Translations under genes and position numbers: made by a program
Part shown: in pieces, positions 8,190 to 24,743 of the stretch
Layout: each line of letters starts with the position of its first letter
Numbering within the stretch: the first letter of the stretch is position 1
The notes under the pieces: model-generated
What the model saw: the letters and a program-made list of their open reading frames with translations, nothing else
Databases searched by the model: none
What the model was told of the DNA's origin: nothing
NCBI GenBank assembly: GCA_963663865.1
Contig: OY760686.1
Location: forward strand, 3,088,590-3,152,589
Direction of reading: 5' to 3'
Source of the DNA: Spirochaetota bacterium
GTDB taxonomy: Bacteria > Spirochaetota > UBA4802 > UBA5550
Length of the DNA stretch: 64,000 bases

Positions 8190-8314
8190 GCAGGCTTCTC
8201 TTACGCAGGGAAATATTCATGTTCAATGATGACAGAATAAAAAATGCCGTTATTAATCAACTATATTTTTCCGTTATTTCCCTCCCAGCAGCAGAGAATG
8301 GCGCTACCCTGGAA

Positions 8315-9472
8315 TTATTCTGACGGCCGGCCGGTTATTTCAACCGCAACTGTCTTTTCCGAGCCGTTTCTCCACAGAACAAGCCTGATCATGCTGCCTA
8401 TTTTCGTCTCGCCGATAACGCGTAGAAGATCCTTGTAGTTCTCAATCCTTTCGCCGCTTACTTCAAGTATCACATCGCCAACACGTATGCCGGCCTTATC
8501 CGCGGGACTCCCGGAAATCACCTCGCTAATAAAAGTACCCCTGACACTCTTCAGTCCAAGCTCTGCGGCTGTGCGCTCATTCAGCTCCATAATCCCCACT
8601 CCGAGGTATCCTCTCTTTACTTCCCTGTGGGTCTTAAGCTGGGCAAGAATTGAGCGGGCCGTGTTTACGGGAATGGCGAACCCTATCCCCATGTAACCTC
8701 CACTCTTTGAGTAAATCATCCTGTTAATACCGATCACTTCGCCATAGATGTTAATCAAGGGACCGCCTGAATTACCGGGATTTATGGACGCGTCTGTCTG
8801 GAGATGTGATGTCCCAAGCAGATCAACATCGCTGCGGCCCACCGCGCTTATAACGCCAACGGTGAAAGTCCGGTCCAGTCCGAAGGGATTTCCTATTGCT
8901 ATAGCCCAATCCCCCACATTAACCGTATCTGAGTCGCCAAAATAGACCGGTTTAAAGCTTTCATTCGAGGTAATCTTCAGCAAAGCAAGATCTGTACGCT
9001 TGTCGCCGCCTATGATTTTCGCCTCGTGATTTTTCTCATTGACCTTAACGAAAACCCTGTCAACTCCGTCTATAACGTGGTAGTTGGTACAGATATATCC
9101 ATCCCTGGATATGACAAAGCCGGTGCCAAGACCGGTTTTTTTCTGAACGCGGGATGGAGCGGAAAAATTCCCGAACCATGGATCGTTAAAAAACGGATGA
9201 GGCCTCACCCTTACAGTCTGCTCAGTCGTAATAAAGACAACACTTTCCCGGTACATCTCGAAAATCTGCCTGAATGCTGTCTGAAGTTCCACCGCCTGAG
9301 ATGTCTTCAGCTGTGACTTCATCGGAGATTCATCGGAGTTACCAAAGACACTCACTCCTCCGGAATCGTTTTTCTGGCAGGAGAACTGATTGAAAAACAG
9401 AAATCCAATAACAACTCCGGTAATCACTGGAAATATAAACCTGTATCTGTACCTGGAAAATGACATTATCAA
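8315..9472 (-). CDS. htrA: HtrA/DegP family periplasmic serine protease with PDZ domain
   Basis: Trypsin-like catalytic motifs (TNYHVI, DLALLKI, GNSGGPLIN) and C-terminal PDZ region. Confidence 0.85.
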   Translation of the reverse strand: MIMSFSRYRYRFIFPVITGVVIGFLFFNQFSCQKNDSGGVSVFGNSDESPMKSQLKTSQAVELQTAFRQIFEMYRESVVFITTEQTVRVRPHPFFNDPWFGNFSAPSRVQKKTGLGTGFVISRDGYICTNYHVIDGVDRVFVKVNEKNHEAKIIGGDKRTDLALLKITSNESFKPVYFGDSDTVNVGDWAIAIGNPFGLDRTFTVGVISAVGRSDVDLLGTSHLQTDASINPGNSGGPLINIYGEVIGINRMIYSKSGGYMGIGFAIPVNTARSILAQLKTHREVKRGYLGVGIMELNERTAAELGLKSVRGTFISEVISGSPADKAGIRVGDVILEVSGERIENYKDLLRVIGETKIGSMIRLVLWRNGSEKTVAVEITGRPSE

Positions 9473-9493
9473 CTCCGAAAAATAAGTTAAAAA

Positions 9494-9709
9494 TTATTCC
9501 TGAAAAACACTCTTCCTGTAACGCTTCTTTTCTCTGTCTTCTCCGCCGATTTTGTCCCTGAACTGCCTTCTGTCGTTGATAGAACCGTCTATCTCCACAA
9601 GGTCAATGTCAATTGACGCCGGCTCCCTCTTTTCTCCACAGGACGCTACAGGCAGAATCGCAAGAGCAATCATTATTGAGACCATTGATTGAAGATGTTG
9701 CCTCTTCAT
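9494..9709 (-). CDS. small putative lipoprotein
   Basis: 71 aa; signal peptide with lipobox VASC; ATG 2 nt after trxA stop suggests translational coupling. Confidence 0.35.
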   Translation of the reverse strand: MKRQHLQSMVSIMIALAILPVASCGEKREPASIDIDLVEIDGSINDRRQFRDKIGGEDREKKRYRKSVFQE

Positions 9710-10902: not shown

Positions 10903-13900
10903 TTATAGATGTGTGATAAAAACCGGAATTAGTCCAATGCCCTCATCAATCCTGTCGAGGGCTTTTCCAATCACAGTGCCTATTTTATCAAACGAGTCAA
11001 TCTTTCCCCTGATGCCGCAGCCGGGAGTATCAGACGTCACAATGAGATCTCCTGGATTTACTGGTCCCTTCCTCGCGTCCACCTTGCACATGACCCTCCC
11101 CGCAAGAGCCACAGGATATGCCTTCTGCTCATCACCGGAGTTGTTGATTACAAGCATGGGATTTCCGGCTACAATACCGACAACAGACTGTGAGTAGGGC
11201 GCCGAAGAGCGCTTTAACGCCGATTTCCCTGAATCCGAAACGACAAGCAGGTCGCCCGGTGATATATACTCAGTTTCTTCAACAACGAACATCTCTACTA
11301 TGCTTGCCGGATATTGCCCCTTTCCGTCTCCTGTTATTTTTACCTGCCCATCGAAGACAGATCTTCCATTAACAAGAAGGGCATCGCCGTTACCCGCAAG
11401 ATTAACGCTTTTATCGTAGTCGGAAAGCCTTCCGAAGCCGTCGGCAACCAGGGAAAAACCGTGCTCACTGGAAAAAACTCCGCCCGCACCGAACCTTGAC
11501 AGACCGAGAACGCCGCAGCCGGAAACACCGTTTTCTCCACCAGCAGACTGCCCCCTTACACCAACAAAACCTCCGTGCCCCACTACACCGTAGCTCTGAA
11601 CAGTTTTCGTGCTGAGAATGCCTGCCACACCGGCTACCCCGATAGAACCTGCTTCTTTAGAGGCATTTTGCCCATATATTACGGCTGAGCCGTCAGACGG
11701 CGGCGTAATATCCGGAAATGCTTCATTCCTTTCCTGCTTGATGCTGATTGTTCCCGAATGGCTTTTAAACTCATGAAGCAGGGGAGCATAGTCATGGGTA
11801 TGTTCGAGTGGTTCCCTCCGGTCATAAAGCCTGGGGTCATTCCCCTGGACGGCGGTTCCCTCCTTGTTTTCACCCTGCTGTGCAAGCCTTACAATTCCGG
11901 GCGTTTTTTCCGTCGCGGGTTTCAGTCTTCTGTCGCTACCCTGAACAGCAACTCCTTTCTTCTCCTCGCCATCCTCGCCGAGTTCAACTATCCCCCTTGA
12001 AATAGTAGTAGCCTCTTTCAGACGGCGGTCATTTCCCTGTACGACAACACCGGCCGCGTCCTCTCCGTCCTCTGCAAGCTCAACTATTCCCGGCGACAGA
12101 GTTGAGGCTTTACGAAGCCTTTTGTCGCTTCCCTGAACAGCTGCAAATGGTGAAGAATCCCCATCAGAAGCGAATCTCATTATACCGGCAGAATCTTCTG
12201 TTGCGTCCTTAAGTCTTTTATCATTGCCCTGGACAACCACTCCCGGTCTGTCCTCTCCATCCTCTGCCAGTTCCACAATCCCTCTGGAACCAGTCGTAGC
12301 ATCCCTCAATCGGCGGTCATTGCCCTGTACAACAACACCGGCCGCGTCCTCTCCGTCCTCGGCAAGCTCGACTATTCCGGGAGATAATGTGGTTGAGGGC
12401 CTGAGTCTTTTGTCGCTTGCCTGAACTGCTGTTAAGGGCTTTTCGGTCCCGTCAGGGGCAAACTGCATAATTCCCTTAAAGGTCTCTGACGCGTCCTTTA
12501 ATCGACGATCGTTTCCCTGAACAACAACGCCGGCCGCGTCTTCACCGTCCTCAGCAAGCTCGACTATTCCCCTGGAACCCGTAGTAGCGTCCTTCAATCG
12601 GCGGTCATTGCCCTGTACAACAACGCCGGCCGCGTCCTCTCCGTCCTCAGCAAGCTCGACTATTCCCCTGGAACCCGTCGTGGCGTCTTTCAATCGGCGG
12701 TCATTGCCCTGTACAACAACGCCGGCCGCGTCCTCTCCGTCCTCAGCAAGCTCGACAATTCCCCTGGAACCCGTCGTGGCGTCTTTCAATCGGCGGTCAT
12801 TGCCCTGTATAGCTACACCTTCAGAGCTTTCTCCATCTTCAGCGAGCTCAACAATTCCCTTGAAAGCTGTTGACGCATCGCGAAGTCTCCTGTCATCGGC
12901 CTGTACAACACATCCTATTGTGTTTTCACCGTTTTTCGCGAGTTTTACAATACCGAAGCTGCTGTCCGTTGCCTTTTGAATCCTGCTGTCATTTCCGGTG
13001 ATGACAGCGCTCCCGGTATACAGGCCGTCCGGGCAGAGCTTTACGATTCCAAAAGTCGAATCGGTCGCTTCAGAAAGCCTTGAATCAGAGCCCTGTACAG
13101 CGGTTCCGGGCTGGGTCTCTCTGTCATAGGCAAGCCTTACAATGCCATTCTTTTCCTCAGTTGCGGGCTTGAGCCTTGAATCCGAACCCTGTACGGCTAT
13201 ACCGGCTGAGTTATCTCCGTCCTCTGCGAGCTGTACTATTCCCTTAAATATCGTTGTAGCATCACAAAGCCTTCTGTCGCTTCCCTGCACTGCCGTTCCC
13301 GGCGAATCTCCCCCATCGGCCGCCAGCTTAACGATGCCGGCCTGAAAGGTTGAAGCATATTGCGGCATTCCTGAAGCGTTGTGAGCGTGCGAATAGTCAA
13401 ACAAAGCAGCGAATATTTCTAAGGACGCCAGTTCAATCGAGAAACCACCAGCGGTATCCTTAGCTCCTCTTCCCTCAAACCTTATGTATCGGACAGGGCA
13501 TATTTCCATATTCCAGGAATATCTCTTCATCGGCTCCGCTTTGAATGATTTTTCCTCAAAAAGCGGAAGGAACAATTCCCCGTCTGTGCTGATATCGACG
13601 TTGAATTTTTCTGGGAAAAGCCCCGAAGAAGCCCCAATAATTATTCTGTTAACGTGATACACCGCGCCAAGATCAATGAGCAGTGTTTCCAGGCCGCTTT
13701 TACCTCTTGAGGGCGACCGCCAGACAAGGTCATGCGCTCCCCTGAACAGATTTTCAGCAGAAGTTTCGGCCGAGGCCGAATCAGCGGTCACTGCCGCAAC
13801 CCCCGATATCCCCCCCGAAAAAGATGCAATTTTACAAACAGCCTTTCCGTCTTCACGGGCATTGAGCCCCGTCACGTATAGCTTATAAAACCTGTACTGC

Positions 13901-14244
13901 ACCGGCGGAAGCGGAAGAATATAGGGACTTCCGCTGCATCTGTATGCAGACTCTGATTTAAGAACATGCCACAGACTGCCATCGGTACTCGCTTCTATTC
14001 TGAAGTCGCGCGGAAAAGACTTCTCTTCGGATGGGACCGGAGCGATCTCTATGCTGTCTATTACAGGCGAATCCTTAAGATCAATAACCACGTATTCAGG
14101 CCTGCCGTCAAAGCCCTCTGAAGTCTGCCAGAATCCGCCCTCTTTCAACAGATTGCCCGCGGAATGAGCCGCATCCGACTCGGACGAGAAGGAGTGTATT
14201 GATGACTGATACTTCTGAGCTCTGCTTATGTTTATAAATTTCAT
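10903..14244 (-). CDS. large repeat protein: two discoidin (F5/8 type C)-like domains + about 16 phage-tail-fibre-like 32-aa repeats + Gly-rich C-terminal domain; no signal peptide
   Basis: 1113 aa single ORF. Discoidin-like segments EYVVIDLKDSPVIDSIEIAPV... and LLIDLGAVYHVNRIIIG.... Repeats of form ATTGSRGIVELAEDGEDAAGVVVQGNDRRLKD resemble the ATxxxxGIVxLAT..E tail-fibre repeat. Confidence 0.8.
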   Translation of the reverse strand: MKFINISRAQKYQSSIHSFSSESDAAHSAGNLLKEGGFWQTSEGFDGRPEYVVIDLKDSPVIDSIEIAPVPSEEKSFPRDFRIEASTDGSLWHVLKSESAYRCSGSPYILPLPPVQYRFYKLYVTGLNAREDGKAVCKIASFSGGISGVAAVTADSASAETSAENLFRGAHDLVWRSPSRGKSGLETLLIDLGAVYHVNRIIIGASSGLFPEKFNVDISTDGELFLPLFEEKSFKAEPMKRYSWNMEICPVRYIRFEGRGAKDTAGGFSIELASLEIFAALFDYSHAHNASGMPQYASTFQAGIVKLAADGGDSPGTAVQGSDRRLCDATTIFKGIVQLAEDGDNSAGIAVQGSDSRLKPATEEKNGIVRLAYDRETQPGTAVQGSDSRLSEATDSTFGIVKLCPDGLYTGSAVITGNDSRIQKATDSSFGIVKLAKNGENTIGCVVQADDRRLRDASTAFKGIVELAEDGESSEGVAIQGNDRRLKDATTGSRGIVELAEDGEDAAGVVVQGNDRRLKDATTGSRGIVELAEDGEDAAGVVVQGNDRRLKDATTGSRGIVELAEDGEDAAGVVVQGNDRRLKDASETFKGIMQFAPDGTEKPLTAVQASDKRLRPSTTLSPGIVELAEDGEDAAGVVVQGNDRRLRDATTGSRGIVELAEDGEDRPGVVVQGNDKRLKDATEDSAGIMRFASDGDSSPFAAVQGSDKRLRKASTLSPGIVELAEDGEDAAGVVVQGNDRRLKEATTISRGIVELGEDGEEKKGVAVQGSDRRLKPATEKTPGIVRLAQQGENKEGTAVQGNDPRLYDRREPLEHTHDYAPLLHEFKSHSGTISIKQERNEAFPDITPPSDGSAVIYGQNASKEAGSIGVAGVAGILSTKTVQSYGVVGHGGFVGVRGQSAGGENGVSGCGVLGLSRFGAGGVFSSEHGFSLVADGFGRLSDYDKSVNLAGNGDALLVNGRSVFDGQVKITGDGKGQYPASIVEMFVVEETEYISPGDLLVVSDSGKSALKRSSAPYSQSVVGIVAGNPMLVINNSGDEQKAYPVALAGRVMCKVDARKGPVNPGDLIVTSDTPGCGIRGKIDSFDKIGTVIGKALDRIDEGIGLIPVFITHL
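11800..13360 (-). repeat. tandem array of about 16 x 96-bp coding repeats (core of near-identical units 12440-12830)
   Basis: Directly visible; consecutive 96-bp units e.g. 12596-12691 and 12692-12787 differ by only a few bases. Confidence 0.85.
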
Positions 14245-14283: not shown

Positions 14284-14826
14284 CTATTGCGCCTTTAGCC
14301 GTATTCTCGGTTCAAAATAGCCGTCAGAGTTGTTTCCGTCTATTACAATCCTTGTTGGACTGACAATCAGGGTTCTTTGTCCATTTTTCTGCTTCACCAG
14401 CCTTCCCTTGAACAGAAAATAGGATGACTTTGTCTTAACGTACCCGGAAGTTATGTTTATGTATCTTGTCTGTGGAACCTTTTTCATCTCTGAAAGATTG
14501 ACCCTTATCGTCTGGTCATCTTCAAGCGTATAGATACCTCTAAAAACGAGAGCGTGAGTATTCAGCCTCAGCGTTATAACAGCCCTGTAATTTTTGTAGA
14601 ACCTGAACTCGTAGCCGTATCCGTCCGGATAAAAAAGCTGCCACACACCCCTTATTCCCTCAAAATCCAGTGGGATATTGTCTCCCTTATCCTCCGGTGC
14701 TTCTTCAACCAGAGGCTCAGTTTCAACTTCTTCAGCGGGCTTTTCCTTTATGCATGATGAAGCCGCAACAAAAATAAACAGAATTCCTGTTATTACAGCA
14801 AAGATATTCATTCGTCTTTTTAACAT
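14284..14826 (-). CDS. putative lipoprotein
   Basis: Signal peptide with lipobox (FVAASSC); 180 aa. Confidence 0.55.
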   Translation of the reverse strand: MLKRRMNIFAVITGILFIFVAASSCIKEKPAEEVETEPLVEEAPEDKGDNIPLDFEGIRGVWQLFYPDGYGYEFRFYKNYRAVITLRLNTHALVFRGIYTLEDDQTIRVNLSEMKKVPQTRYINITSGYVKTKSSYFLFKGRLVKQKNGQRTLIVSPTRIVIDGNNSDGYFEPRIRLKAQ

Positions 14827-15017: not shown

Positions 15018-15367
15018 GGGGACGATTTTGGTTTCGACTGCAATTGCTGGTCTTCAGTGGCATGCCGAGTATCCTGTCTTCTCGTAAAAAATGGCAGGAA
15101 TGATTTAACTGCAAACGACAACTTTGCACTAGCGGCTTAATCCCCGCTACGTCTCCGAAGGCTCCTGTCCTCTGGGATCTTCACGAGGCGTCATAATCAG
15201 AGGATAGCCAATGAACAGTCTCCCGGGTTCAGAGGTGAAATTTAAGGGAGAACGGCATGCAGGACGGTGCCTTTCCCGGCCCGCATACTGTAACAAAAGA
15301 ACAGGCTAAGCATGTAGAAGCTGTGGATTTGGATTGTAGGACGCGGGTTCGACTCCCGCCGTCTCCA
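15018..15367 (+). ncRNA. ssrA: tmRNA (transfer-messenger RNA), tag peptide ANDNFALAA
   Basis: 5' GGGGACGATTTTGGTTTCGAC and 3' GGACGCGGGTTCGACTCCCGCCGTCTCCA match conserved tmRNA acceptor/T-arm ends; internal reading frame GCAAACGACAACTTTGCACTAGCGGCTTAA gives ANDNFALAA then stop. Confidence 0.85.
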
Positions 15368-15379
15368 AGACTTAACTCC

Positions 15380-16021
15380 CTATTCCTCAAGAAATCCGGC
15401 TATATCCATAGTATCGGCAAACCTTCCGCCAACACGGCTAAGCAGGATTTTTTTTACTGAATCAGGAATGATTTCCTGGACATCCCTTGTTTCATTTTGT
15501 CTGTCCATGTAGATAATGTTGAGCTCAGAGTCAACTGCTACAAACATGCTGTACATATCAATGTATTGAAGTTCGGGAGAATAGAAACCGTCCACCTCAT
15601 AGATGACAAGAGCGTCGAGACCGCTGTCTGCCATGACTTTCATAAGAGCTTCGCGGTTCATTCTTAAAAAAAGATTAATAACACCTGTTGTTTTAAATTT
15701 CAAAAAGGATTTATTCTCAGAGTACTGGCAGAATTTTCCAAAAACAGCGTCGTACGAATAAACCGCTTCGGTCAGATTTTTGTCCTCAAGAAAGACAAAG
15801 GGCCTGCTCTCGCGGTATGCTCCCGCCCACTTCTGAAGCGAAAGCATTAGCTCCTCGCGCGGAAGCATTGTGCTTGCGGGGGTTCTCAATATTACACCGG
15901 CCTTGCTCACTGAAGAGAGCTTTGCCGAATCAGACAGCTCCTTCTTCACCCCGTAAGACGAACAACCGGCAGCAACCGAGAAAAGCACCGATACTATAAA
16001 TAATCGAAATAATGTTTTCAT
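15380..16021 (-). CDS. putative lipoprotein
   Basis: Signal peptide MKTLFRLFIVSVLFSVAAGCSS with lipobox. Confidence 0.5.
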   Translation of the reverse strand: MKTLFRLFIVSVLFSVAAGCSSYGVKKELSDSAKLSSVSKAGVILRTPASTMLPREELMLSLQKWAGAYRESRPFVFLEDKNLTEAVYSYDAVFGKFCQYSENKSFLKFKTTGVINLFLRMNREALMKVMADSGLDALVIYEVDGFYSPELQYIDMYSMFVAVDSELNIIYMDRQNETRDVQEIIPDSVKKILLSRVGGRFADTMDIAGFLEE

Positions 16022-16040: not shown

Positions 16041-16841
16041 TCAATCAAGGAGGCCGAACACCTGTGGCGCTGCGTCCGTAAGGGCCCATGCGACAGGCTC
16101 ACTGGAAACACCGCCGTAATAATCGACCATGTTAAAATGCCCGAGCCAGGTTAAAAGATAAAAATCGATAAATGACGCAAAGAACAGGTCATTTTTTCTT
16201 GCAACGCCAGTCAACTCACTGAAATCGTTAGCTACCTCCTGAACCTGCGCTTTTTTTCTTCTGAGAAGCACATCCCTGAATATTGAGCGGTCCCGCTGCA
16301 GAAGTTCAGCCAGCTCATGGTCTGAAGGGAACAGCTCTTTCCATTCAACATCATTCCAGAAGGTTCTCATCAGTCTGCAATAGAGCAGACGCCGGTCGCC
16401 TTCAACACCGGAAACCTTCACTCGCCCCTTCGATTTCTCAATCAGGCCGCAGACCTTCATTATCATTGCCATCTGCCTGAGATATATATCGGCGAGGCAA
16501 TGGTCGATTTTTTCATGAGAAGAACACTGGCTGATAAAACTGTCGGCTGAAATACTGTAGTATTCATCCGGCAGAAGACATCCCCTGTCATGCGAACACT
16601 CCCTGCCGTCAGCAGTTGCCGCAATAAAACTACAGAGCCTTACGGCCAAGCAGTTCTCCGCTTCCGCCGGAGCCGAGTCCCGGTCTGAAACGATATAGGC
16701 GTGGTAGGAGGAAGCTGCGTCAAAACGCTCCATCACTGACGGCACAGCCGACTGCGACGGATAACAGGCAGAAAAATCCACTCCCGCGGTAAAAAAAGAC
16801 ATTTTTTTTCTTTTTGCTGTGATGTAGCCGTTATCTGACAT
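16041..16841 (-). CDS. hypothetical protein
   Basis: 266 aa ORF, Cys/His-rich central region, no family recognised. Confidence 0.45.
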   Translation of the reverse strand: MSDNGYITAKRKKMSFFTAGVDFSACYPSQSAVPSVMERFDAASSYHAYIVSDRDSAPAEAENCLAVRLCSFIAATADGRECSHDRGCLLPDEYYSISADSFISQCSSHEKIDHCLADIYLRQMAMIMKVCGLIEKSKGRVKVSGVEGDRRLLYCRLMRTFWNDVEWKELFPSDHELAELLQRDRSIFRDVLLRRKKAQVQEVANDFSELTGVARKNDLFFASFIDFYLLTWLGHFNMVDYYGGVSSEPVAWALTDAAPQVFGLLD

Positions 16842-17213: not shown

Positions 17214-17921
17214 TTAACCCAACAATGCTGAAACCGCATCTCGCTGTATGTTCCCCTGCGTGGCAAGTGCGTTTGCAGGTGAACCGCCGATTGCAGCGCC
17301 TACAGCAGAAGCGGCCTCATAGGGGTTCTCAACATCTACGTTATAGGTCTCAACAGCTGAGGTCATAACAGCGGCCGCCTCTCCAGCCGCTGCCTCATAG
17401 GCGGAGTAGGTATCACCCAGACTGGACTCCAGATCAGCAAAAAACTCCGGGTTTGGCCTTTCGCCTGCCGCAAGTCCCGATGCCCCGAAACGCAGCGACA
17501 CAATGGCTGCTTCAGGTGAAGGTATATCGAAGCTCACCGATGCTGCCGCCGGCGACAAAGCAGGTATAACTATGGAGGTTCTTAACTCCGGAAGGTTCTC
17601 GGGAAGCTGGCTCGACGCCTCAGCAACCGCAGCAGAATCAAGCCTGCCCGTTCTTACAGCGTCAGCGGCTGCATTCTTCAGCTGTGAAGAAACCACTATA
17701 GCCCTCTGTACAATGCTCATGGAGGCCTGCGCGACACTGAGCGCCTCGCCTAAAGCCCTCTCAACAGAAAGCCTTGAAAGGATTGCCTGATTATAATCCC
17801 GCCCATTACCAGCCGAATCAGGCCCGACTGCAGCTGAAGCCGCGCTGGAACGTACAGGAGTTCTCGGACTGTTCAAAGCCCTCCGGGCAGAAACATCGCC
17901 AATATCCGTATTGATCTTCAT
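17214..17921 (-). CDS. Ala-rich protein with flagellin-like N- and C-termini (degenerate flagellin-like)
   Basis: N-terminus MKINTDIG resembles the flagellin MxINTN start. A.LSVAQASMSIVQRA resembles the end of the flagellin N-domain. C-terminal ...GNIQRDAVSALLG resembles the flagellin C-terminus. Only 235 aa. Confidence 0.45.
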   Translation of the reverse strand: MKINTDIGDVSARRALNSPRTPVRSSAASAAVGPDSAGNGRDYNQAILSRLSVERALGEALSVAQASMSIVQRAIVVSSQLKNAAADAVRTGRLDSAAVAEASSQLPENLPELRTSIVIPALSPAAASVSFDIPSPEAAIVSLRFGASGLAAGERPNPEFFADLESSLGDTYSAYEAAAGEAAAVMTSAVETYNVDVENPYEAASAVGAAIGGSPANALATQGNIQRDAVSALLG

Positions 17922-18001
17922 GTTACCCTCCCTGTGCCCGTAATAATAATAAGAACTGAAAATGCCAATGTCAAACTGAAATTTTCAGCTTTTTCGATTG
18001 C

Positions 18002-19582
18002 TCAGAAATTACAGCTTGCGCCGGCGTCAAAACGCCTGTCGTAAACACCTTTGCTGCTGTAAACCAGCTCTGCCCTGAGATTGCATGACAGAGAAGAATT
18101 GGCTTCGAGCACTATAAGGATTGCATTGATATTAAGAGCTTTTCTGAACATGCTTCCAGTGCTGACTGACCCGGCAAAGGGCGCCGGATTGAGAAATACA
18201 GGGTTATGGGCAGATGCTTCGACTCTGATATAGTCAAACCTCATTCGGACAAGCTCCGGTTCCGTCCACTTGAGCGCGCACCCTGCTGACCAGGCTGCCT
18301 CCGCCCCTCTCCTCTTCTGAAGGGATGAGCTCATTAACACGGACAGCCCCCGGCGGAAAAGCGCCGATCCTGAGAGCTTGAACTGATGTGAGACTGCCAG
18401 CCCATCCCCGTCAGTCACCAGGTGAACATATTTCATCTTCGCTGAAAATGATTCAGATTTGCGCTCAAGGAATGCCTCTTCCCGATGAGCAGAACGCAGA
18501 TATGCTGATTGCCCTGATGCGGAATTGTTTACTTCAGCTGAAGAACTCAGCCCGGCATTGAGTTTTCTCGAAAGCTTAAGAAGCAATGCCCCTTCATATC
18601 TCGCTGAGGGGGCGCCCGGATCGCTGCTGACGGGAGCGAAAAAGCCCTGCCTCATCCCTTCACCAGAGACGGACAACGTATAAAAGCCCGGGCTGATTAC
18701 AAGTCCCCCGGAAAACCCCAGGCTGTCCGAGCGTCCGGCGGCGCCTGACTCCTGCAGACGAAAGGCACATCCGGCCTCAAACCATGCGGTAAATGTTTTG
18801 TCGCTGTACCCGGCAAAGAGGCTTTCTCCTCCATAGCCCCAGTGAGCAGCGCTGCCGTCTCCGCTCCCGACTTGCATTTTTCTCATCGTGTAATCGAAAA
18901 CGCCTCCTCTCAGAAAGCACAGCTGAATAGAAAAGTTTTTTAAATACAACAGGGCCAGAACTATACCTGAGTCCAACAGCATGACCGGCTCAGTGTACTT
19001 TTCTGAGGGATTAAGCTTCGTATTGATACCCGATATTGATACGGTGGTACGCCCGCTGTCAAAGTCACCGCCGGGGAAATAGCGCCTCCTGCATGAAATA
19101 AATGGGTACAGGGCTATTCTGTTCTCATCTGTCCCGAACGAGATCCCGGCGGCAGCCCCGGCCATCAAATAGAGAGGATTAGCGGTGGCCGGGGCTGCGA
19201 TCACTGCAGAGCGGCCCGCCCTCCTGCGGGGCGAAAAAGCGTCAGCGCTGAAAAAGCTGCGTTTCCCGAGGATGAGCCCTGTTCCGGAGGAAACCGTGTA
19301 TCCGCCAAGAGCGATCTCAAAGCCGGGCAGCGCATCCCCCAGATAGAGGCTCCCCGCCCATGTCCTGTCAGCTTCTGAAGGGACATCGGCATAACCCGCG
19401 CTGAAATGCGAATCCTCCGATAGATTGAGCTTTACCAGAGACCTGAAATACTCCTTCTCTGACGCATCGTAATCTACATAGTCTCTCCTGAACTCCGTTT
19501 TAATGAGATACTCGGGATACCGCTCAGCCTCAGCACCTGCGGCTGCCAGAATAAGCGCTGCTGTTACAGATAGGAGGAACAC
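18002..19582 (-). CDS. putative outer-membrane beta-barrel protein
   Basis: Signal peptide, alternating amphipathic pattern, C-terminal Phe (ASCNF); 19-bp overlap with upstream gene. Confidence 0.5.
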   Translation of the reverse strand: MFLLSVTAALILAAAGAEAERYPEYLIKTEFRRDYVDYDASEKEYFRSLVKLNLSEDSHFSAGYADVPSEADRTWAGSLYLGDALPGFEIALGGYTVSSGTGLILGKRSFFSADAFSPRRRAGRSAVIAAPATANPLYLMAGAAAGISFGTDENRIALYPFISCRRRYFPGGDFDSGRTTVSISGINTKLNPSEKYTEPVMLLDSGIVLALLYLKNFSIQLCFLRGGVFDYTMRKMQVGSGDGSAAHWGYGGESLFAGYSDKTFTAWFEAGCAFRLQESGAAGRSDSLGFSGGLVISPGFYTLSVSGEGMRQGFFAPVSSDPGAPSARYEGALLLKLSRKLNAGLSSSAEVNNSASGQSAYLRSAHREEAFLERKSESFSAKMKYVHLVTDGDGLAVSHQFKLSGSALFRRGLSVLMSSSLQKRRGAEAAWSAGCALKWTEPELVRMRFDYIRVEASAHNPVFLNPAPFAGSVSTGSMFRKALNINAILIVLEANSSLSCNLRAELVYSSKGVYDRRFDAGASCNF

Positions 19583-20847
19583 AGATTTAACACCTTCTCC
19601 TTGACAGCTCCTTTGAGCCCGAGCTCATTCAGGCCGTTCCTCCTCTGCACCCGGGTTTTCCTCTGAAGTATATCAATAACCTCAAGCGCGTTGACAGGGT
19701 TAAGCCCGGCATTGAGCAGACCGGAAAAGAGCGAGCTCTTCTGATGCCCTGTCATCTCGCTTCGCCCGCTTTTTCTAAAGCTGCGACGCTTTTCACGCTC
19801 CGGCTTACGCTCCTTCTCAAAACCATAAGCATGGTTATAGAGAACGCCGATATCCCCCCCGTCCATGCCAAGCTGAATGAGAGCATCTTCACTGACAGGG
19901 CCTATCAGCCGCCTGTATTTGATTAGCCTCTCCCTGAAAAGCACCGGAACCGCTTCCATCCCCATTATCTCTTCATCGGAGCATGTCCGTATATCAACCT
20001 TCCGGGGCAGCTCTGCGTCCAGCTCTGTATTGAGCCCTGAATAGCTTAGTGAATCAAAGCTCCCGCCGCCGAAGCGGAGTGAAACACCGGCCGTATGCGT
20101 GCTTCCAAGATAGGGGTGCCTGAGCAGTGAATATGTAAAGGAAAGACTCGAGACGTTAACCTCAACTCCCAGGCCGTAGGACAATGTCTCCCTGGAATAT
20201 CCGGCCCTGAGCAGTATGTACTGCTGAATACGTACTGAGACTGTAAAGGTGTTGATATAGCCGTAAGCTGACGATGTGATGTTATACGAGGCGGCGAGGC
20301 CCTTAACCGGAACAAATGACGCGCCCGCGCTCCATTCCGGGGAGAGCAGAGAGCTTCCCTGGAAGGAACGAATGTTCTCACATGCCCCGGCAAGCACCAG
20401 CCTTCTTGACAGCGGGATATTGACGTAAGCGCTCAGGTCAGCCTCTCCCTCCAGGCCTCCATCCTCAAATTTCACCCAGGAATACCCCGCGCTTAGCCCG
20501 GCCGCCAAAAAACCGGCCGGCCGGAATCCCGCGCCGATGGAAATCTCATTTTCACGGTACCCTTCGGCTCCGAAGTTTTCCCACGAAAACAGAAAACCCG
20601 CTCCGGAAACCGGAAAGAGCGCCTGCATGTTTCCGCATAAAAGCCCTGTGCCGGTGTAAGGGCGCCCCCCTGCCATGCTGATGCGGGGCCCGGGCAGTCC
20701 CGCGCTGTACGAGGTATTGAGCACCGCTGATCCCGAGAATCCCTCTGAGGCGGCTACGGTATACGGGAACATGCCTTCAAAACAGGCAGGCCTGTACTCA
20801 AAGGCCGTCACGAGTGCGGCCGCCAGAACAAGCATGGAGACACTCAT
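19564..20847 (-). CDS. putative outer-membrane protein with C-terminal ComEA-like helix-hairpin-helix domain
   Basis: Start set at MSVSMLVLAAALVTA signal peptide; its ATG overlaps the upstream gene stop as ATGA. C-terminal VDIRTCSDEEIMGMEAVPVLFRERLIKYRRLIGPVSEDALIQLGMDGGDIG aligns by eye with the ComEA competence-protein helix-hairpin-helix domain. Confidence 0.5.
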   Translation of the reverse strand: MSVSMLVLAAALVTAFEYRPACFEGMFPYTVAASEGFSGSAVLNTSYSAGLPGPRISMAGGRPYTGTGLLCGNMQALFPVSGAGFLFSWENFGAEGYRENEISIGAGFRPAGFLAAGLSAGYSWVKFEDGGLEGEADLSAYVNIPLSRRLVLAGACENIRSFQGSSLLSPEWSAGASFVPVKGLAASYNITSSAYGYINTFTVSVRIQQYILLRAGYSRETLSYGLGVEVNVSSLSFTYSLLRHPYLGSTHTAGVSLRFGGGSFDSLSYSGLNTELDAELPRKVDIRTCSDEEIMGMEAVPVLFRERLIKYRRLIGPVSEDALIQLGMDGGDIGVLYNHAYGFEKERKPEREKRRSFRKSGRSEMTGHQKSSLFSGLLNAGLNPVNALEVIDILQRKTRVQRRNGLNELGLKGAVKEKVLNLCSSYL

Positions 20848-21857
20848 CTTTTCCGCCCGAGTACGATGAGAAACTTCTTCCTCTGGGCCCTTTTCCGCTC
20901 CCGGGATACAGCCTCTACCAGCACGGGATATATCCCGGCCGGCAGGGTCGCCACCGAAGGGCTCTCCCAGTAGAGACTGAAATATCCGGGGGCAATATCC
21001 CTGGCAAGGTCCGTGGAATAGAGCATCACTCCAGTCGATGAAAACACCCTCAATCTGAGGCTGCATTCCTCATTCACGAAGAGAGGCACCTCGACAGATG
21101 CGGTTGCCGCGTCCCTTCGCACGTTGATTCTGCCTTTTCTAAGCTTAAAAACATCTCCAGCTGGTTCTCCGGAGCTGATTATGTTTTCCCTGCCCGGTGT
21201 CTGAAACCTGGTTACGGCAAAATCAGCAGAGCTGTTGCAATCGGGAACCGGCAGGCGTGAAACAGAAAAGTGCCCCTTCAGGCCGTTAGCCCCTATATCA
21301 ATGCTGCTCTTCTGGACATCATCCGCTGCAGTCCATTGACCCGCGGCCGAGGCGCAGCGGATATAGCCTGTAACTGCTTTATTGGGAGTTCCGTCCATGT
21401 TTGAATACGCCGCAAAATCAATGATTCCGCCGTTTTCCGGATCGTCATCAGTATCTATAGAAACAACACCTTCCGAATTCCATAGAGCAGCAGAGTAGTT
21501 GGAACAGCTGACTTCCAGAATACCGTTTCCATTAATGTCGCCGCTCAGATCCGATTCAGTCGCTGAGGCGCCCTCGTGCATATAAACTACTATGAACCTG
21601 TCGTCCCAGGGTGTGTCCGGGCTGTCCTCACTGCGGATAGTGACTGGTTCCAGCGACAGCCGCATATTGCTGCCGTAGTAGCAGGTCACGAAGAGCGGAG
21701 AAACATCCATGCTCTCCCCCGGCCCGCCGGAAAAGCAAAGTTCAACCCAGTCGTTTTCCGTATTTGTTACGAACTCGTTGATTGACAGACCCGCCAGCGC
21801 TTCTTCACTGAAACAGACACACAGGACAAGGGCGATAAGGAGCAGTTTTGTTTTCAT
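20844..21857 (-). CDS. secreted lamin-tail-domain (LTD) protein with C-terminal Ig-like region
   Basis: Signal peptide; LSINEFVTNTENDWVELCFSG matches the LTD INE...DWVEL signature. Confidence 0.6.
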   Translation of the reverse strand: MKTKLLLIALVLCVCFSEEALAGLSINEFVTNTENDWVELCFSGGPGESMDVSPLFVTCYYGSNMRLSLEPVTIRSEDSPDTPWDDRFIVVYMHEGASATESDLSGDINGNGILEVSCSNYSAALWNSEGVVSIDTDDDPENGGIIDFAAYSNMDGTPNKAVTGYIRCASAAGQWTAADDVQKSSIDIGANGLKGHFSVSRLPVPDCNSSADFAVTRFQTPGRENIISSGEPAGDVFKLRKGRINVRRDAATASVEVPLFVNEECSLRLRVFSSTGVMLYSTDLARDIAPGYFSLYWESPSVATLPAGIYPVLVEAVSRERKRAQRKKFLIVLGRKR

Positions 21858-21944: not shown

Positions 21945-23093
21945 GTGCAAACGCCTAAAAAGTGTAATGGGATGAGCGGAAAGACAAAGACATTCATGGG
22001 TTCGAAGATTAGTCCGAGATATCTCGGCGCATTTGCTTCAGGAATCAGGGATATTATCGCGTCGTCAGACGACCGAAACCAGGCCCTGGCCCGCGTGTCC
22101 TCAGTCTCAGTTGAGGCCTTCGGACGCGAAATCAGCCCCACAGTTCTTGAAAAGCCGGACAGGCTTTCCATATCGTTCCTTGAACTGCTTGACCAGATCG
22201 TTTTTGAGATCAACGAAAATCAAAGCGATTCCGAAACAATAAAGGACTACATCGCCGAGAACCTCTTCAAAAGAGTGACTATCTTCAGCGAAGCGATGAC
22301 GGAAATCTCCGCTTACAGCAGGAGCCTGCAGTCCAGGCCGCTCAGCGTTGATGACACCCTCATAATATCACACTTCCGAATGAATGAATTTGTGCCGGAG
22401 CTGATTAACGAGTTTGCCGAAAACCCCGCGCTTCAGAAACACATTCTCAGAGCGCTGCTCCGTTTTAATCCTGATGAAACTGTATCCTTCATGTCAGAAA
22501 TAGCCTCAGGACCCTACTGCCCTGAGGCCCGGGCGACCGCGCTTGCTTCGCTGAAAAAGTCCTCCGCTGGAACGGAGATTCTCGCGTCCCTCGAAGAAAA
22601 CGGGAAGTCCTCGCTGCTCCGTTACGCTTCCCTTTTTAATGCCGCCAATATCCCCGGGAATATAAAGCCGTACACTCCTGAAACCTGCGCGTTCGCGTCA
22701 TATCTGATTGAAGCCGACAGCGCACTCATAAATGACATTCCGTCTCTCATCTGGTTTTGCGGGATTTTCGAGTCGTTCCCGGACGCGCCGGGAAACAGCG
22801 AGAACCCGAAATACTCGGGAATTTTCCGGGCCCTGACTCATGTCCTCGTTGAGCTTCCCCGAACGCTCCTCAAGGACGCAGTCAAGTCAGACATCGCGCT
22901 AACCGCGCTCACCTCCTTTATTGACTCGCTTCCGAGATCAGTATTCAGCAGAATAGCCGTAGCCCTTGACCCGCTGGGCAGCTCCTTTCATGACCCGGTA
23001 GGCGCTCTTGTCGAAAGCGGCAAAATAGTTTTGGACGGCCCGTCTTCCAACACGCTCAGCTACCTCATGCGTGACACCGCTTCCGCTTTTTAA
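21945..23093 (+). CDS. hypothetical protein (alpha-helical)
   Basis: 382 aa ORF; no family recognised. Confidence 0.45.
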   Translation: MQTPKKCNGMSGKTKTFMGSKISPRYLGAFASGIRDIIASSDDRNQALARVSSVSVEAFGREISPTVLEKPDRLSISFLELLDQIVFEINENQSDSETIKDYIAENLFKRVTIFSEAMTEISAYSRSLQSRPLSVDDTLIISHFRMNEFVPELINEFAENPALQKHILRALLRFNPDETVSFMSEIASGPYCPEARATALASLKKSSAGTEILASLEENGKSSLLRYASLFNAANIPGNIKPYTPETCAFASYLIEADSALINDIPSLIWFCGIFESFPDAPGNSENPKYSGIFRALTHVLVELPRTLLKDAVKSDIALTALTSFIDSLPRSVFSRIAVALDPLGSSFHDPVGALVESGKIVLDGPSSNTLSYLMRDTASAF

Positions 23094-23096
23094 TTC

Positions 23097-24743
23097 TTAA
23101 TCCCTTATATCAGCTTCGCCGCCGGCGCCCTCAACCTGGTCAACCCTGACCTTGACGAACCAGACCGGAGGCTTGCCCGCGCCGTGTGACATGTAGTAGC
23201 TTCTTTTCTTTACAGCCCTTGTAAAATCCGTTTTTATTATTCCGGGGATATCGGCTGCAGGAACATCAACGATCACCGGAACGGGGGCAATGCCGTACAT
23301 ACCCGCGGGATCATCTCTGAAATAGAACCCTGCGTAGATGTAGGCGCCTTCCCTTGCCCTCAGTGACGACAGCATCTTCGGTGTAGGAATCATTACCCGG
23401 AACGAAACCCTGCCGTCCGTAAGAAGCGCGCTTCCGGCTGCAGCCTGGCCCCTGCCGGCCTGTCCAAAGGCCCCGGTCACAATTTCCTTCAGATTGGTAA
23501 GCAATGGCCCCTTTTTTATAACCCGCCGGCCGGTCTGCTTCTCAAAGAGCTCCGGAAGGCTGTAAGGCCCGGCCGCCTCAGACCTCATCTCGCTCAGCGG
23601 CTCGAGCGCCTTTCCCATAGACGGATTGTATCTGTCGGGAACATATACTCCCCCTCTCCAGGAGGATGCAGGCCTTTCCGATCTGAATGCCCTGCCGTTC
23701 TGGAAGTATAGATACACCGGGCTTCCTGTTTCGGTGAAGGCCTTCTGGCTGTAGACGGCATAGATGTTTTTGCCGCGCGCTGACGCTGCAACCCTTTCGG
23801 GTATCTCGGCCCTGCTTCCAGTAAGGCTGCCCAGTGAAACTGCCCGCAGAGCGATGCCCTTCCCGGCGGCGCGGGCGGCCTCCTGTTCCGGGAAGCGGGC
23901 AGAGGGCATCTCCGAGTTTGTTATCAGAACAATGTGCTTAGCTGAACCTTTCCGCCATCGTACATTTCCGACCGCGTACCTGAGAGCAGAGACAAACGAA
24001 GAGGCGTCTGGCTTTCCGGATGGCTTCATGCCGGCAAGGGCCTGTCTGAGGGCGTGAAGAGTCGTATATGTCTTCACACCCGTGATATTTATGTTTTTCC
24101 CGGAAAAGGGAATCAACGTTACGCGGCAATCCATTCTGCGGGCATCTATTAAATCCGAAGCTGACGCAATCACAGCGGCCCTGACATCGCCCCACTCGCA
24201 GGAGATGTTCCATGAAAGATCAAGCAGAAAGGCAACGTCCGCGCTTCCGGCGTCATACCCTCGTTTTACAGCTGGATATGCCGTGAAGGCTTCGCGCACC
24301 TCGTTTTCGGCCAGCTCGAAGATATCTGAACCCGCTGAACTGATTCTGCTGAGCACACGCTTTTCTGGCACCGAATAGAGCACGCTCACAGACTCATATC
24401 CGCCGCGGGTTTTGTAGAGAGTTCCTGCGAGAACTGTGTCGATATATTTCCCCGCTGTCAATGCCTGAAGGTCATCAGAGGACAGCTTCTTTGCCGGATC
24501 AATCTTCAGTCTCTCCATGTCGAGTTCAATATCGCGTGAGGAGGTTACTCTGACATCGCGTGAAAGTAAAGCAGTAAGAGCAACCAGCCTTGCGAAATCC
24601 CGGGCTGTTTCTGCCGTAAGCTTTTCTGACGGATTCCCCGCCCTGTAGGGCAGCACAGCAGTCTCGGCAAAAAGGGCATGTGAGCCTAACACAAGAATCA
24701 AAGCTAATAAAACTGTTAGTCTCTTCATATTACTTAACATCAC
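23097..24743 (-). CDS. secreted von Willebrand factor A (vWA)-like domain protein
   Basis: Signal peptide; central VAFLLDLSWNIS...HIVLITNSE resembles vWA MIDAS/beta-strand pattern. Confidence 0.5.
   Translation of the reverse strand: MMLSNMKRLTVLLALILVLGSHALFAETAVLPYRAGNPSEKLTAETARDFARLVALTALLSRDVRVTSSRDIELDMERLKIDPAKKLSSDDLQALTAGKYIDTVLAGTLYKTRGGYESVSVLYSVPEKRVLSRISSAGSDIFELAENEVREAFTAYPAVKRGYDAGSADVAFLLDLSWNISCEWGDVRAAVIASASDLIDARRMDCRVTLIPFSGKNINITGVKTYTTLHALRQALAGMKPSGKPDASSFVSALRYAVGNVRWRKGSAKHIVLITNSEMPSARFPEQEAARAAGKGIALRAVSLGSLTGSRAEIPERVAASARGKNIYAVYSQKAFTETGSPVYLYFQNGRAFRSERPASSWRGGVYVPDRYNPSMGKALEPLSEMRSEAAGPYSLPELFEKQTGRRVIKKGPLLTNLKEIVTGAFGQAGRGQAAAGSALLTDGRVSFRVMIPTPKMLSSLRAREGAYIYAGFYFRDDPAGMYGIAPVPVIVDVPAADIPGIIKTDFTRAVKKRSYYMSHGAGKPPVWFVKVRVDQVEGAGGEADIRD

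Follow-up and report, generated by a model that had tools for sequence, protein, structure and literature searches.

Three tightly linked genes, here called g1, g2 and g3, form a translationally coupled and strongly conserved module of uncultured Spirochaetota, found in about 70 species genomes. They lie on the minus strand of a 64,000-nucleotide stretch of DNA from a Spirochaetota bacterium (contig OY760686.1, positions 3,088,590 to 3,152,589; hereafter the window). The first gene encodes a secreted protein with two predicted beta-sandwich domains. The second encodes a predicted outer-membrane beta-barrel followed by a tail related to the helix-hairpin-helix (HhH) module of ComEA, and the third gene probably encodes a partner barrel. 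We tentatively propose that the two barrels form a conduit across the outer membrane with a built-in DNA-handling module.

The positions of g1 (20844-21857; 337 aa) and g2 (19564-20847; 427 aa) were taken from a list of open reading frames (ORFs); g3 extends from 18002 to 19582 (526 aa). A GGAGG ribosome-binding site precedes the ATG codon of g1, the product of which starts with a signal peptide. Reading of the sequence at the g1/g2 junction showed an ATGA stop/start overlap (20844-20847, minus strand) in which the ATG of g2 lies over the TGA of g1. This ATG was taken as the start of g2 and a longer upstream ORF was set aside. The next two genes overlap by 19 nucleotides (19564-19582, minus strand): the GTG start codon of g3 is located inside the end of g2, with GGAGAAGG as a ribosome-binding site ahead of it. 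The g3 product ends with ...SCNF. An earlier note on this region had described an operon of four genes. Direct reading of the junctions bore out all of its coordinates, as well as the ATGA junction, the overlap of 19 nt and the gap of 80 nt that separates g3 from a fourth gene, g4 (17214-17921, minus strand; 235 aa, alanine-rich).

A word-based search with g2 retrieved just two relatives. One, 98% identical, is on a 1.39-Mb contig (L001) with unchanged gene order. The other, 32% identical, is on a 3.2-kb metagenome contig (L002) that retains the end of g1 (44% identity), g2, g3 (25% identity, E = 9e-27) and the identical 19-nt overlap between g2 and g3. An exhaustive profile search with g2 gave 1,003 cluster representatives at E ≤ 0.001, 78 of them below 1e-30 and mostly full-length proteins of about 430 aa. 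We also derived a degenerate DNA pattern from invariant residues of the g2 barrel (GY..E..Y..H..LG.TH) and searched the GTDB species-representative genomes with it. The 85 matching stretches came mostly from metagenome-assembled genomes (MAGs) carrying the label Spirochaetota, Spirochaetia or Leptospirales; no named cultured strain was among the sources. Gene neighbourhoods were then counted by clustering the ORFs of 8-kb loci from the species representatives. The counts were 73 loci for g2, 70 for g3 and 61 for g1, and the order g1-g2-g3 on a single strand was kept without exception. The g1/g2 junction was -4 nt in most loci, its commonest state, and g2 and g3 overlapped by 13 to 22 nt in most loci, most often by 19 nt. 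Any other neighbour of the triad was seen in at most 17 loci. The commonest single-copy one, in 15 loci, was a homologue (about 370 aa, 25-35% identity, upstream and divergent) of the window gene at 21945-23093 (plus strand). This gene encodes a 382-aa protein with a weak HEAT_2 match and no signal peptide. Overall, the linkage of g1, g2 and g3 is far above chance, and the conservation of the neighbourhood in relatives upholds that part of the earlier description.

The fourth gene does not belong to this unit. Only in the 98%-identical L001 does g4 adjoin g3, and in locus L015 it is grouped on the opposite strand with homologues of two other window genes (16041-16841 and 15380-16021). Because of these two arrangements, the unit comprises three genes and not four. 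The best promoter-like site of the region, a sigma-70-like TTGACA-17-TATTAT matching at 11 of 12 positions (17974-17946, minus strand), lies in the g3/g4 gap just ahead of the g4 ribosome-binding site and marks the boundary of the unit. It was the only noteworthy signal, since terminator-like and remaining promoter-like sites were no commoner than in shuffled sequence. Thus, g4 is a separate transcription unit outside the conserved module; the proposed operon stands for g1-g2-g3, with order, strand and overlaps kept, but not for g4, which has its own promoter and is not conserved beside g3. Nor was the description of g4 as flagellin-like sustained: no Pfam or NCBIfam model, and hence no flagellin model, matched at E ≤ 10, and no PDB sequence match was found at the same threshold.

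None of g1, g2, g3 and g4 had a significant Pfam or NCBIfam match, and neither the isolated C-terminus of g2 nor the isolated N-terminal domain of g1 matched these collections even at E ≤ 10. In view of this lack of direct annotation, the assignments below depend on relatives.

The N-terminal part of g2 (20074-20847, minus strand) comprises a signal peptide (residues 1-15), a conserved mature N-terminus (FEYRP..G.FPY), which is a possible plug, and a barrel. An AlphaFold2 (AF2) model built from an alignment of 60 relatives (mean pLDDT 89.7) displayed a leader helix and 14 beta strands between residues 55 and 258, the strand number of the FadL family. Structural matches of the model were of the FadL/PorV fold, and the top ones included PorV, which docks on SprA, and BamG, which docks on BamA. 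The barrel closes with the beta-signal-like sequence GSTHTAGVSLRF. The model thus identifies g2 as a 14-stranded outer-membrane barrel of the FadL/PorV/PorP kind, in agreement with the outer-membrane barrel first suggested for this gene. At the level of sequence profiles, the Toluene_X, PorV and PorP_SprF models matched neither g2 nor its 60 relatives, and PorV_fam reached an E-value of only 0.23. The link of g2 to PorP_SprF is transitive: g2 reaches the barrel-HhH protein of locus L094 (6e-11), which in turn reaches a PorP_SprF-matching protein (1.7e-18 by BLAST).

Barrel-only homologues terminate exactly at GSTHTAGVSLRF, the motif that closes strand 14 of g2. For this reason, we regard the remainder of g2 as an appendage added after the beta-signal of an even-stranded barrel. 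Even-stranded barrels of the FadL/PorV type have periplasmic termini, and the g2 tail is therefore expected to face the periplasm. In the model, the tail consists of helices at residues 291-340, a poorly ordered Lys/Arg-rich linker and four helices between residues 367 and 422. Its first part is a ComEA-type HhH module with degenerate hairpin glycines (KVDIRTCSDEEIMGMEAVPVLFRERLIKYRRLIGPVSEDALIQLGMDGGDI; 19813-20010, minus strand; residues ~280-345). After the linker comes a C-terminal module (19567-19755, minus strand; residues ~365-427) with helices at 367-379, 384-396, 399-408 and 413-422. Distant relatives carry their second HHH_3 domain at this place, so that the module could represent a second HhH in degenerate form. 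The tail is basic: its net charge averages +10.8 over the family, and its pI is 9.4.

The relationship to ComEA comes from the family. HHH_3 is present in 58 of the 60 aligned relatives (best E-value 3.5e-11), the window copy being one of the two without it. In relative P0002 the match (E = 5e-10) covers the residues aligned to g2 residues ~280-345. The comEA models of NCBIfam match 33/60 (TIGR01259) and 28/60 relatives, and the g2 family profile matches the EEPD1 and ComEA structures 8dss (1.4e-6) and 8dfk. By these profile comparisons, the tail is homologous to the HhH of ComEA at the family level. The earlier proposal of a ComEA-like C-terminus consequently holds for the family but not for the window protein taken by itself, as detailed below.

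In the g3 family, a hydrophobic leader was found in all 48 relatives. The last residue is F in 32 of them and F, Y, W, L or I in 45, in line with the original view of g3 as an outer-membrane protein ending in Phe. A word-based search with g3 found the protein itself alone, and there was no Pfam or PDB sequence match. PDB matches to designed toroid repeat proteins were dismissed as compositional. A strand count based on hydrophobic alternation was uninformative, as it gave 6 segments for the 14 strands of g2 used as a control. Profile-profile comparison was more telling. The g3 family aligned by hhalign with nine HhH + barrel proteins of the Fibrobacterota-Chlorobiota-Bacteroidota (FCB) group with a probability of 98.5% (E = 2.1e-15, 432 columns), and the alignment covers a common GNYxxxFGxGL motif, read GGYTVSSGTGL in g3 (family GNYxxxFGxGLL). 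An earlier comparison with a thin three-sequence alignment had not been significant (6.8%, E = 0.005); the result became decisive with nine diverse sequences. On this alignment, g3 is homologous to the barrel part of proteins composed of signal peptide, HhH and barrel, and it is a probable outer-membrane barrel partnering g2. The two barrels of the module are not called paralogues, hhalign between them (73%) reflecting generic barrel similarity only.

More distant matches of the g2 profile show how the HhH is distributed between the two barrels. A first group, of 480-545 aa, has the same barrel followed by two strong HHH_3 domains (E ~1e-35). Within the barrel, the Toluene_X, PorV, TraF_2 and UPF0164 models give faint signals; the PsbU and GspK models also match these proteins. 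Their contigs carry operons of a similar kind. In loci L088-L090 the order is a protein with a Pfam lamin-tail domain (LTD), a small gene, the barrel-HhH protein, a 747-aa HHH_3 protein and a FadL-type barrel. In L094-L096, a 516-aa protein with a weak FlgD_ig match is encoded immediately upstream of the barrel-HhH gene, and in L096 a PorP_SprF match was found on a barrel two genes further upstream. In L091 and L093, the barrel-HhH protein is followed by a large protein starting with HhH. The longest contig among L088-L090, L088, contains a second pair (7606-9644, plus strand), in which the gene of a 324-aa LTD + FlgD_ig protein overlaps by 4 nt that of a 355-aa barrel of UPF0164, the Treponema FadL-like family. 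The pairing of a beta-sandwich protein having a C-terminal Ig-like domain with a FadL-type barrel therefore recurs.

A second group comes from non-spirochaete loci (Ignavibacteria, Chlorobiaceae, Gemmatimonadota, a Deferribacteres-labelled MAG and Calditrichota). There, the homologue of g2 has 270-340 aa and consists of the barrel alone (profile E-values 1e-15 to 1e-32). In most of these loci the next gene overlaps that of the barrel by 4-8 nt and encodes a protein of 590-685 aa, in which a signal peptide and an HhH precede a long C-terminal region with an outer-membrane beta-signal at its end. Since g3 is homologous to the barrel part of such HhH + barrel proteins encoded directly after g2-like barrels, the ancestral core is a small FadL-like barrel plus a large barrel, with the HhH on either or both according to the lineage. 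This shuffling of the HhH between barrel genes across phyla provides strong genomic evidence that both barrels act as one machine.

The Ignavibacteria and Chlorobiaceae loci hold the barrel pair without an adjacent g1-like gene. In these and in the Deferribacteres-labelled loci, the pair has a conserved divergent neighbour encoding a secreted protein of about 290-308 aa (L048 3465-4379(-), L049 3549-4421(+), L037 1540-2421(-), L021 3182-4081(-), L073 326-1252(-), L018 3125-4006(+), L085 3121-3981(+)). Where the locus is from Ignavibacteria or Chlorobiaceae, the mature end of this protein starts with QELN..V.VN. The protein might fill the role that g1 has in spirochaetes. In two Gemmatimonadota MAGs (L017 138-1139(+) and L052 5212-7065(-)), the gene before the small barrel ends with ...GVVLGG(I/K)L, resembling the conserved C-terminal ...V(L/V)GRK(L/F) of g1-like proteins. 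From this likeness, the three-gene form may exist there too.

The first protein of the module, g1, has a signal peptide at about residues 1-22, cleaved after ...ALA, and its AF2 model (pLDDT 90.4, pTM 0.86) displays this peptide and two beta-sandwich domains. The N-domain (21162-21791, minus strand; residues 23 to ~232) is very acidic (net charge -21, pI 4.1), with many invariant Asp and Asn residues and a DETDxTGDxNGNGxxD loop. The C-domain (20847-21161, minus strand; residues ~233-337) is Ig-like and basic (net charge +9, pI 10). None of the 279 homologues detected is annotated, and the source names seen for the family all read "hypothetical protein". Among 75 relatives, three families gave signals below threshold: CHU_C, a C-terminal domain (CTD) of type B belonging to T9SS, the type IX secretion system, in 14 (best 4.1e-5, all below the curated cut-off), FlgD_ig in 2 and LTD (PF00932) in 4 (best E-value 0.018). 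LTD matched neither g1 itself nor, at E ≤ 0.01, any of 44 relatives. The g1 profile (HMMER) reached the protein preceding the barrel-HhH gene in L094 (7.5e-17; hhalign 97.7%) and in L093 (7.5e-14), the C-domains of which link by BLAST to that of the L088 Pfam-LTD protein. The comparison of g1 with this LTD protein by hhalign gave 50-71%, and neither the LTD protein nor the 747-aa protein of L088 was found with HMMER profiles of g1 and g3. Judged from these profile signals, "LTD" and "T9SS-like CTD" are leads for g1 and not memberships. Secretion of g1, as first noted, is supported by the signal peptide, but its designation as a lamin-tail protein is not borne out above threshold.

The reading that we favour, with a probability of about 0.4, is by analogy a PorV/SprA-like two-barrel conduit with a built-in DNA-handling module of the ComEA kind, on which g1 is anchored. 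In this model, the small barrel g2 would dock on the larger barrel g3, as PorV does on SprA or BamG on BamA, and g3 would be the conduit. The HhH modules, at the periplasmic mouth, would bind in a ComEA-like manner a polyanionic polymer crossing the outer membrane, most likely DNA. Where g1 is present, its basic C-domain would hold it on the complex, as PorP/SprF barrels hold type B CTD proteins. In solved complexes, FadL-like barrels dock as accessory subunits on large barrels (PorV/SprA, BamG/BamA). These precedents, both among the top structural matches, are the reason for taking g2 and g3 as a docked pair. The best-supported role of ComEA-type modules is the non-specific binding of DNA entering the periplasm. 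DNA handling is ranked first because the pair never loses its periplasmic-side module of this type, and it is a plausible function of that module. The basic charge of the g2 tail speaks indirectly for DNA binding. Pilus-independent passage of DNA via outer-membrane barrels, aided by an HhH protein, has been described in Riemerella anatipestifer (PMC8459023), and the related Ddb locus offers a further precedent (PMC12478041).

Several observations weigh against this proposal. The window g2 has no HHH_3 (PF12836) match, either as a whole protein or with its C-terminal 146 aa, even at E ≤ 10. The G-h-G signature, the hairpins of which contact DNA phosphates in ComEA/HHH_3, is kept in only 1/60 members of the spirochaete family per hairpin and is lost in the other 59; the hairpins of the window protein read MEAVPV (first) and QLGMD. 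Extracytoplasmic HhH folds without a DNA role exist, as in PsbU and GspK. The strong acidity of the g1 N-domain makes direct DNA binding by g1 unlikely. Genes for a nuclease, ComEC, DprA or a pilus are not among the conserved neighbours of the module in the 8-kb loci, the surroundings of which vary. Finally, the complex of g1, g2 and g3 is deduced from gene coupling and domain shuffling only. A stricter version of the proposal, in which the barrel pair would be a pilus-independent outer-membrane DNA translocon having a ComEA ratchet built in, the g3 relatives being the pore and the g2 relatives a PorV-like gate, appears rather doubtful. If true, such a translocon would be common to Spirochaetota and much of the FCB group, and would offer a possible explanation of how DNA crosses the outer membrane in bacteria that have neither type IV pili nor a PilQ secretin.

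As the main rival, the module could instead serve the display or secretion of a protein in the manner of T9SS, with no DNA role: g1 would be the cargo held by g2 via its C-domain, g3 the translocon or a co-anchor, and the periplasmic HhH/helical tail would be no more than a tether, comparable to PorE, which links PorP to peptidoglycan. Genes of type B CTD proteins do indeed lie beside those of 14-stranded PorP-like barrels, which anchor these proteins (PMC9143113; PMC12618676), and for g1 and g2 the model is a good fit. The sub-threshold CHU_C (14/75) and FlgD_ig (2/75) signals of g1 relatives fit this idea, as do the FlgD_ig matches of g1-like upstream proteins in the distant operons, the BLAST link (1.7e-18) of a g2-type barrel to a PorP_SprF-matching protein of the same distant locus, and the presence of PorV among the top structural matches of g2. 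The acidic g1 with its Ca-binding-like loop is also reminiscent of many surface adhesins. Yet the barrel pair occurs without an adjacent g1-like gene in Ignavibacteria and Chlorobiaceae, which argues that cargo display cannot be the core function, and display leaves unexplained why a ComEA-type HhH is retained and shuffled between barrels. Moreover, T9SS is confined to the FCB group according to the literature, no SprA-like gene was seen near the module, and no T9SS-like gene was found in the window or in the 8-kb loci. We hold display without a DNA role to be somewhat unlikely; DNA handling and display could both hold, provided that g1 is an accessory subunit at the surface.

An envelope tether, in which the barrels and the basic periplasmic tail would join the outer membrane to peptidoglycan or to the flagellar sheath region with g1 as a structural partner at the surface or in the periplasm, would account for the degenerate HhH hairpins of spirochaetes. 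It would also agree with the faint UPF0164 matches of barrel-HhH relatives and with TP0548, TP0859 and TP0865 of Treponema pallidum, the helical C-terminal extensions of which presumably lie in the periplasm and are believed to serve contacts between proteins (PMC8407342). But the pair is also found in non-spirochaetes without periplasmic flagella, distant relatives keep canonical HHH_3 domains, and profile scans of g2 and its 60 relatives detected no peptidoglycan-binding domain, so that a tether seems improbable. Import of fatty acids or aromatic compounds by g2, the other genes being passengers, is suggested by the FadL-type fold itself; it is very improbable given the absence of Toluene_X from g2 and 60 relatives, the strict translational coupling of g2 to g1 and g3, and an HhH tail that has no place in the lateral diffusion of hydrophobic molecules. 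The slimmest chance goes to the surface function raised in the earlier note, where an exposed ComEA domain and an LTD protein would hold extracellular DNA in place within a biofilm. In its favour, the homology to HhH does exist for the family, and a distant operon does contain a true Pfam LTD protein. Against this, the barrel ahead of the g2 tail is even-stranded, of the FadL type and with periplasmic termini; coming after strand 14 and the beta-signal, the tail should thus face the periplasm. In addition, the g1 N-domain has a net charge of -21 and the LTD assignment of g1 is sub-threshold.

Comparison with known systems places the favoured two-barrel conduit between several of them. As in T9SS, where PorV and PorP/SprF are the counterparts, g2 is encoded directly after a secreted protein with an Ig-like end and weak CHU_C/FlgD_ig signals. 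Like PorV with SprA, it has a larger barrel as its partner, and it possesses an anchoring element in the periplasm, a part played for PorP by PorE (PMC9143113), which ties PorP/SprF-type barrels to the wall (PMC9143113; PMC12618676). The differences are that g2 lacks a PorV or PorP_SprF profile match, its link being transitive, that the host is a spirochaete, that g3 has about 500 aa as compared to roughly 2,400 aa for SprA, that the periplasmic element is a fused ComEA-type HhH whereas PorE is OmpA-like, and that the barrel pair is also found without a cargo gene. With ComEA, the periplasmic DNA receptor and ratchet of natural transformation, g2 shares an HHH_3-type module, a basic context and a predicted periplasmic location. 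However, the module is here fused to or encoded with outer-membrane barrels, whereas ComEA is soluble or anchored in the inner membrane; the G-h-G hairpins of spirochaetes are degenerate, and the 8-kb loci hold no ComEC or pilus genes nearby.

Pilus-independent DNA import across the outer membrane of Bacteroidota follows the same logic, in that one operon encodes a surface protein together with an outer-membrane barrel, and an HhH protein lies in the periplasm (PMC8459023; PMC12478041). The genes are RA0C_RS04920/04915 and that of the HhH protein RA0C_RS02645 in R. anatipestifer (PMC8459023), and DdbCD in Bacteroides thetaiotaomicron (PMC12478041). In those systems the HhH protein is a separate one and the barrels, which have CarboxypepD_reg-type domains, depend on TonB, whereas here a FadL-like barrel goes with an unclassified large barrel. 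Homology between them and g1, g2 or g3 was not seen, no test aimed at it having been made. The nearest spirochaete parallel, compared by description, is the set of bipartite FadL-like proteins TP0548, TP0859 and TP0865 (UPF0164) of T. pallidum (PMC8407342). Their extension is a three-helix bundle resembling tetratricopeptide repeats (TPR) and not an HhH, and partners like g1 or g3 are not reported (PMC8407342).

Literature searches on FadL or other barrels combined with ComEA/HhH, on T9SS/PorV in Spirochaetota and on outer-membrane DNA uptake in Bacteroidota did not bring up a description of the module, in accordance with the original remark that the arrangement is not a described system. The parts are recognisable (a PorV/PorP-type barrel, a ComEA-type module), their combination is absent from the literature searched, and there is a real chance that it represents a new machine. 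If this machine handles DNA, it would be a candidate, open to testing, for the way in which DNA passes the outer membrane of bacteria without competence pili. If it displays a protein, the anchoring principle of PorP and type B CTDs would extend beyond the FCB group. A possible kinship with the bipartite FadL-like vaccine candidates of T. pallidum adds to its interest, as do the size of the g2 family, with its 1,003 representatives, and a g1 family made up of hypothetical proteins.

Other genes of the window lie around the module. Downstream of g4 are genes for a 266-aa protein (16041-16841, minus strand), a homologue of which comes after g3 in L077, and for a 213-aa protein with a lipoprotein-like leader ending in ...AAGCSS (15380-16021, minus strand). 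No function was found for these two or for g4. A transfer-messenger RNA (tmRNA) gene encoding the tag peptide ANDNFALAA was identified at 15018-15367 on the plus strand (ARAGORN; Rfam 201 bits), and the Rfam scan found this RNA alone. It sits between the lipoprotein-like gene and the gene at 14284-14826 (minus strand). In L001, about 3.3 kb with alkaline phosphatase and YibE_F genes separates the homologues of 15380-16021 and 14284-14826; this difference is an indel adjoining the tmRNA gene. Further along, the gene at 10903-14244 (minus strand) encodes a 1,113-aa protein with two N-terminal F5/8 type C (discoidin) domains, then about 20 near-identical repeats of ~30 aa (GIVELAEDGEDAAGVVVQGNDRRLKDATT...) and, at the C-terminus, a region rich in Gly. 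Conservation of the repeats at the protein level is unusually strong. On the other side of the module, the gene at 23097-24743 (minus strand) encodes a secreted 548-aa protein with a von Willebrand factor type A (VWA) domain and a weak match to the LIC10012 family of Leptospira, which fits the spirochaete origin of the window.

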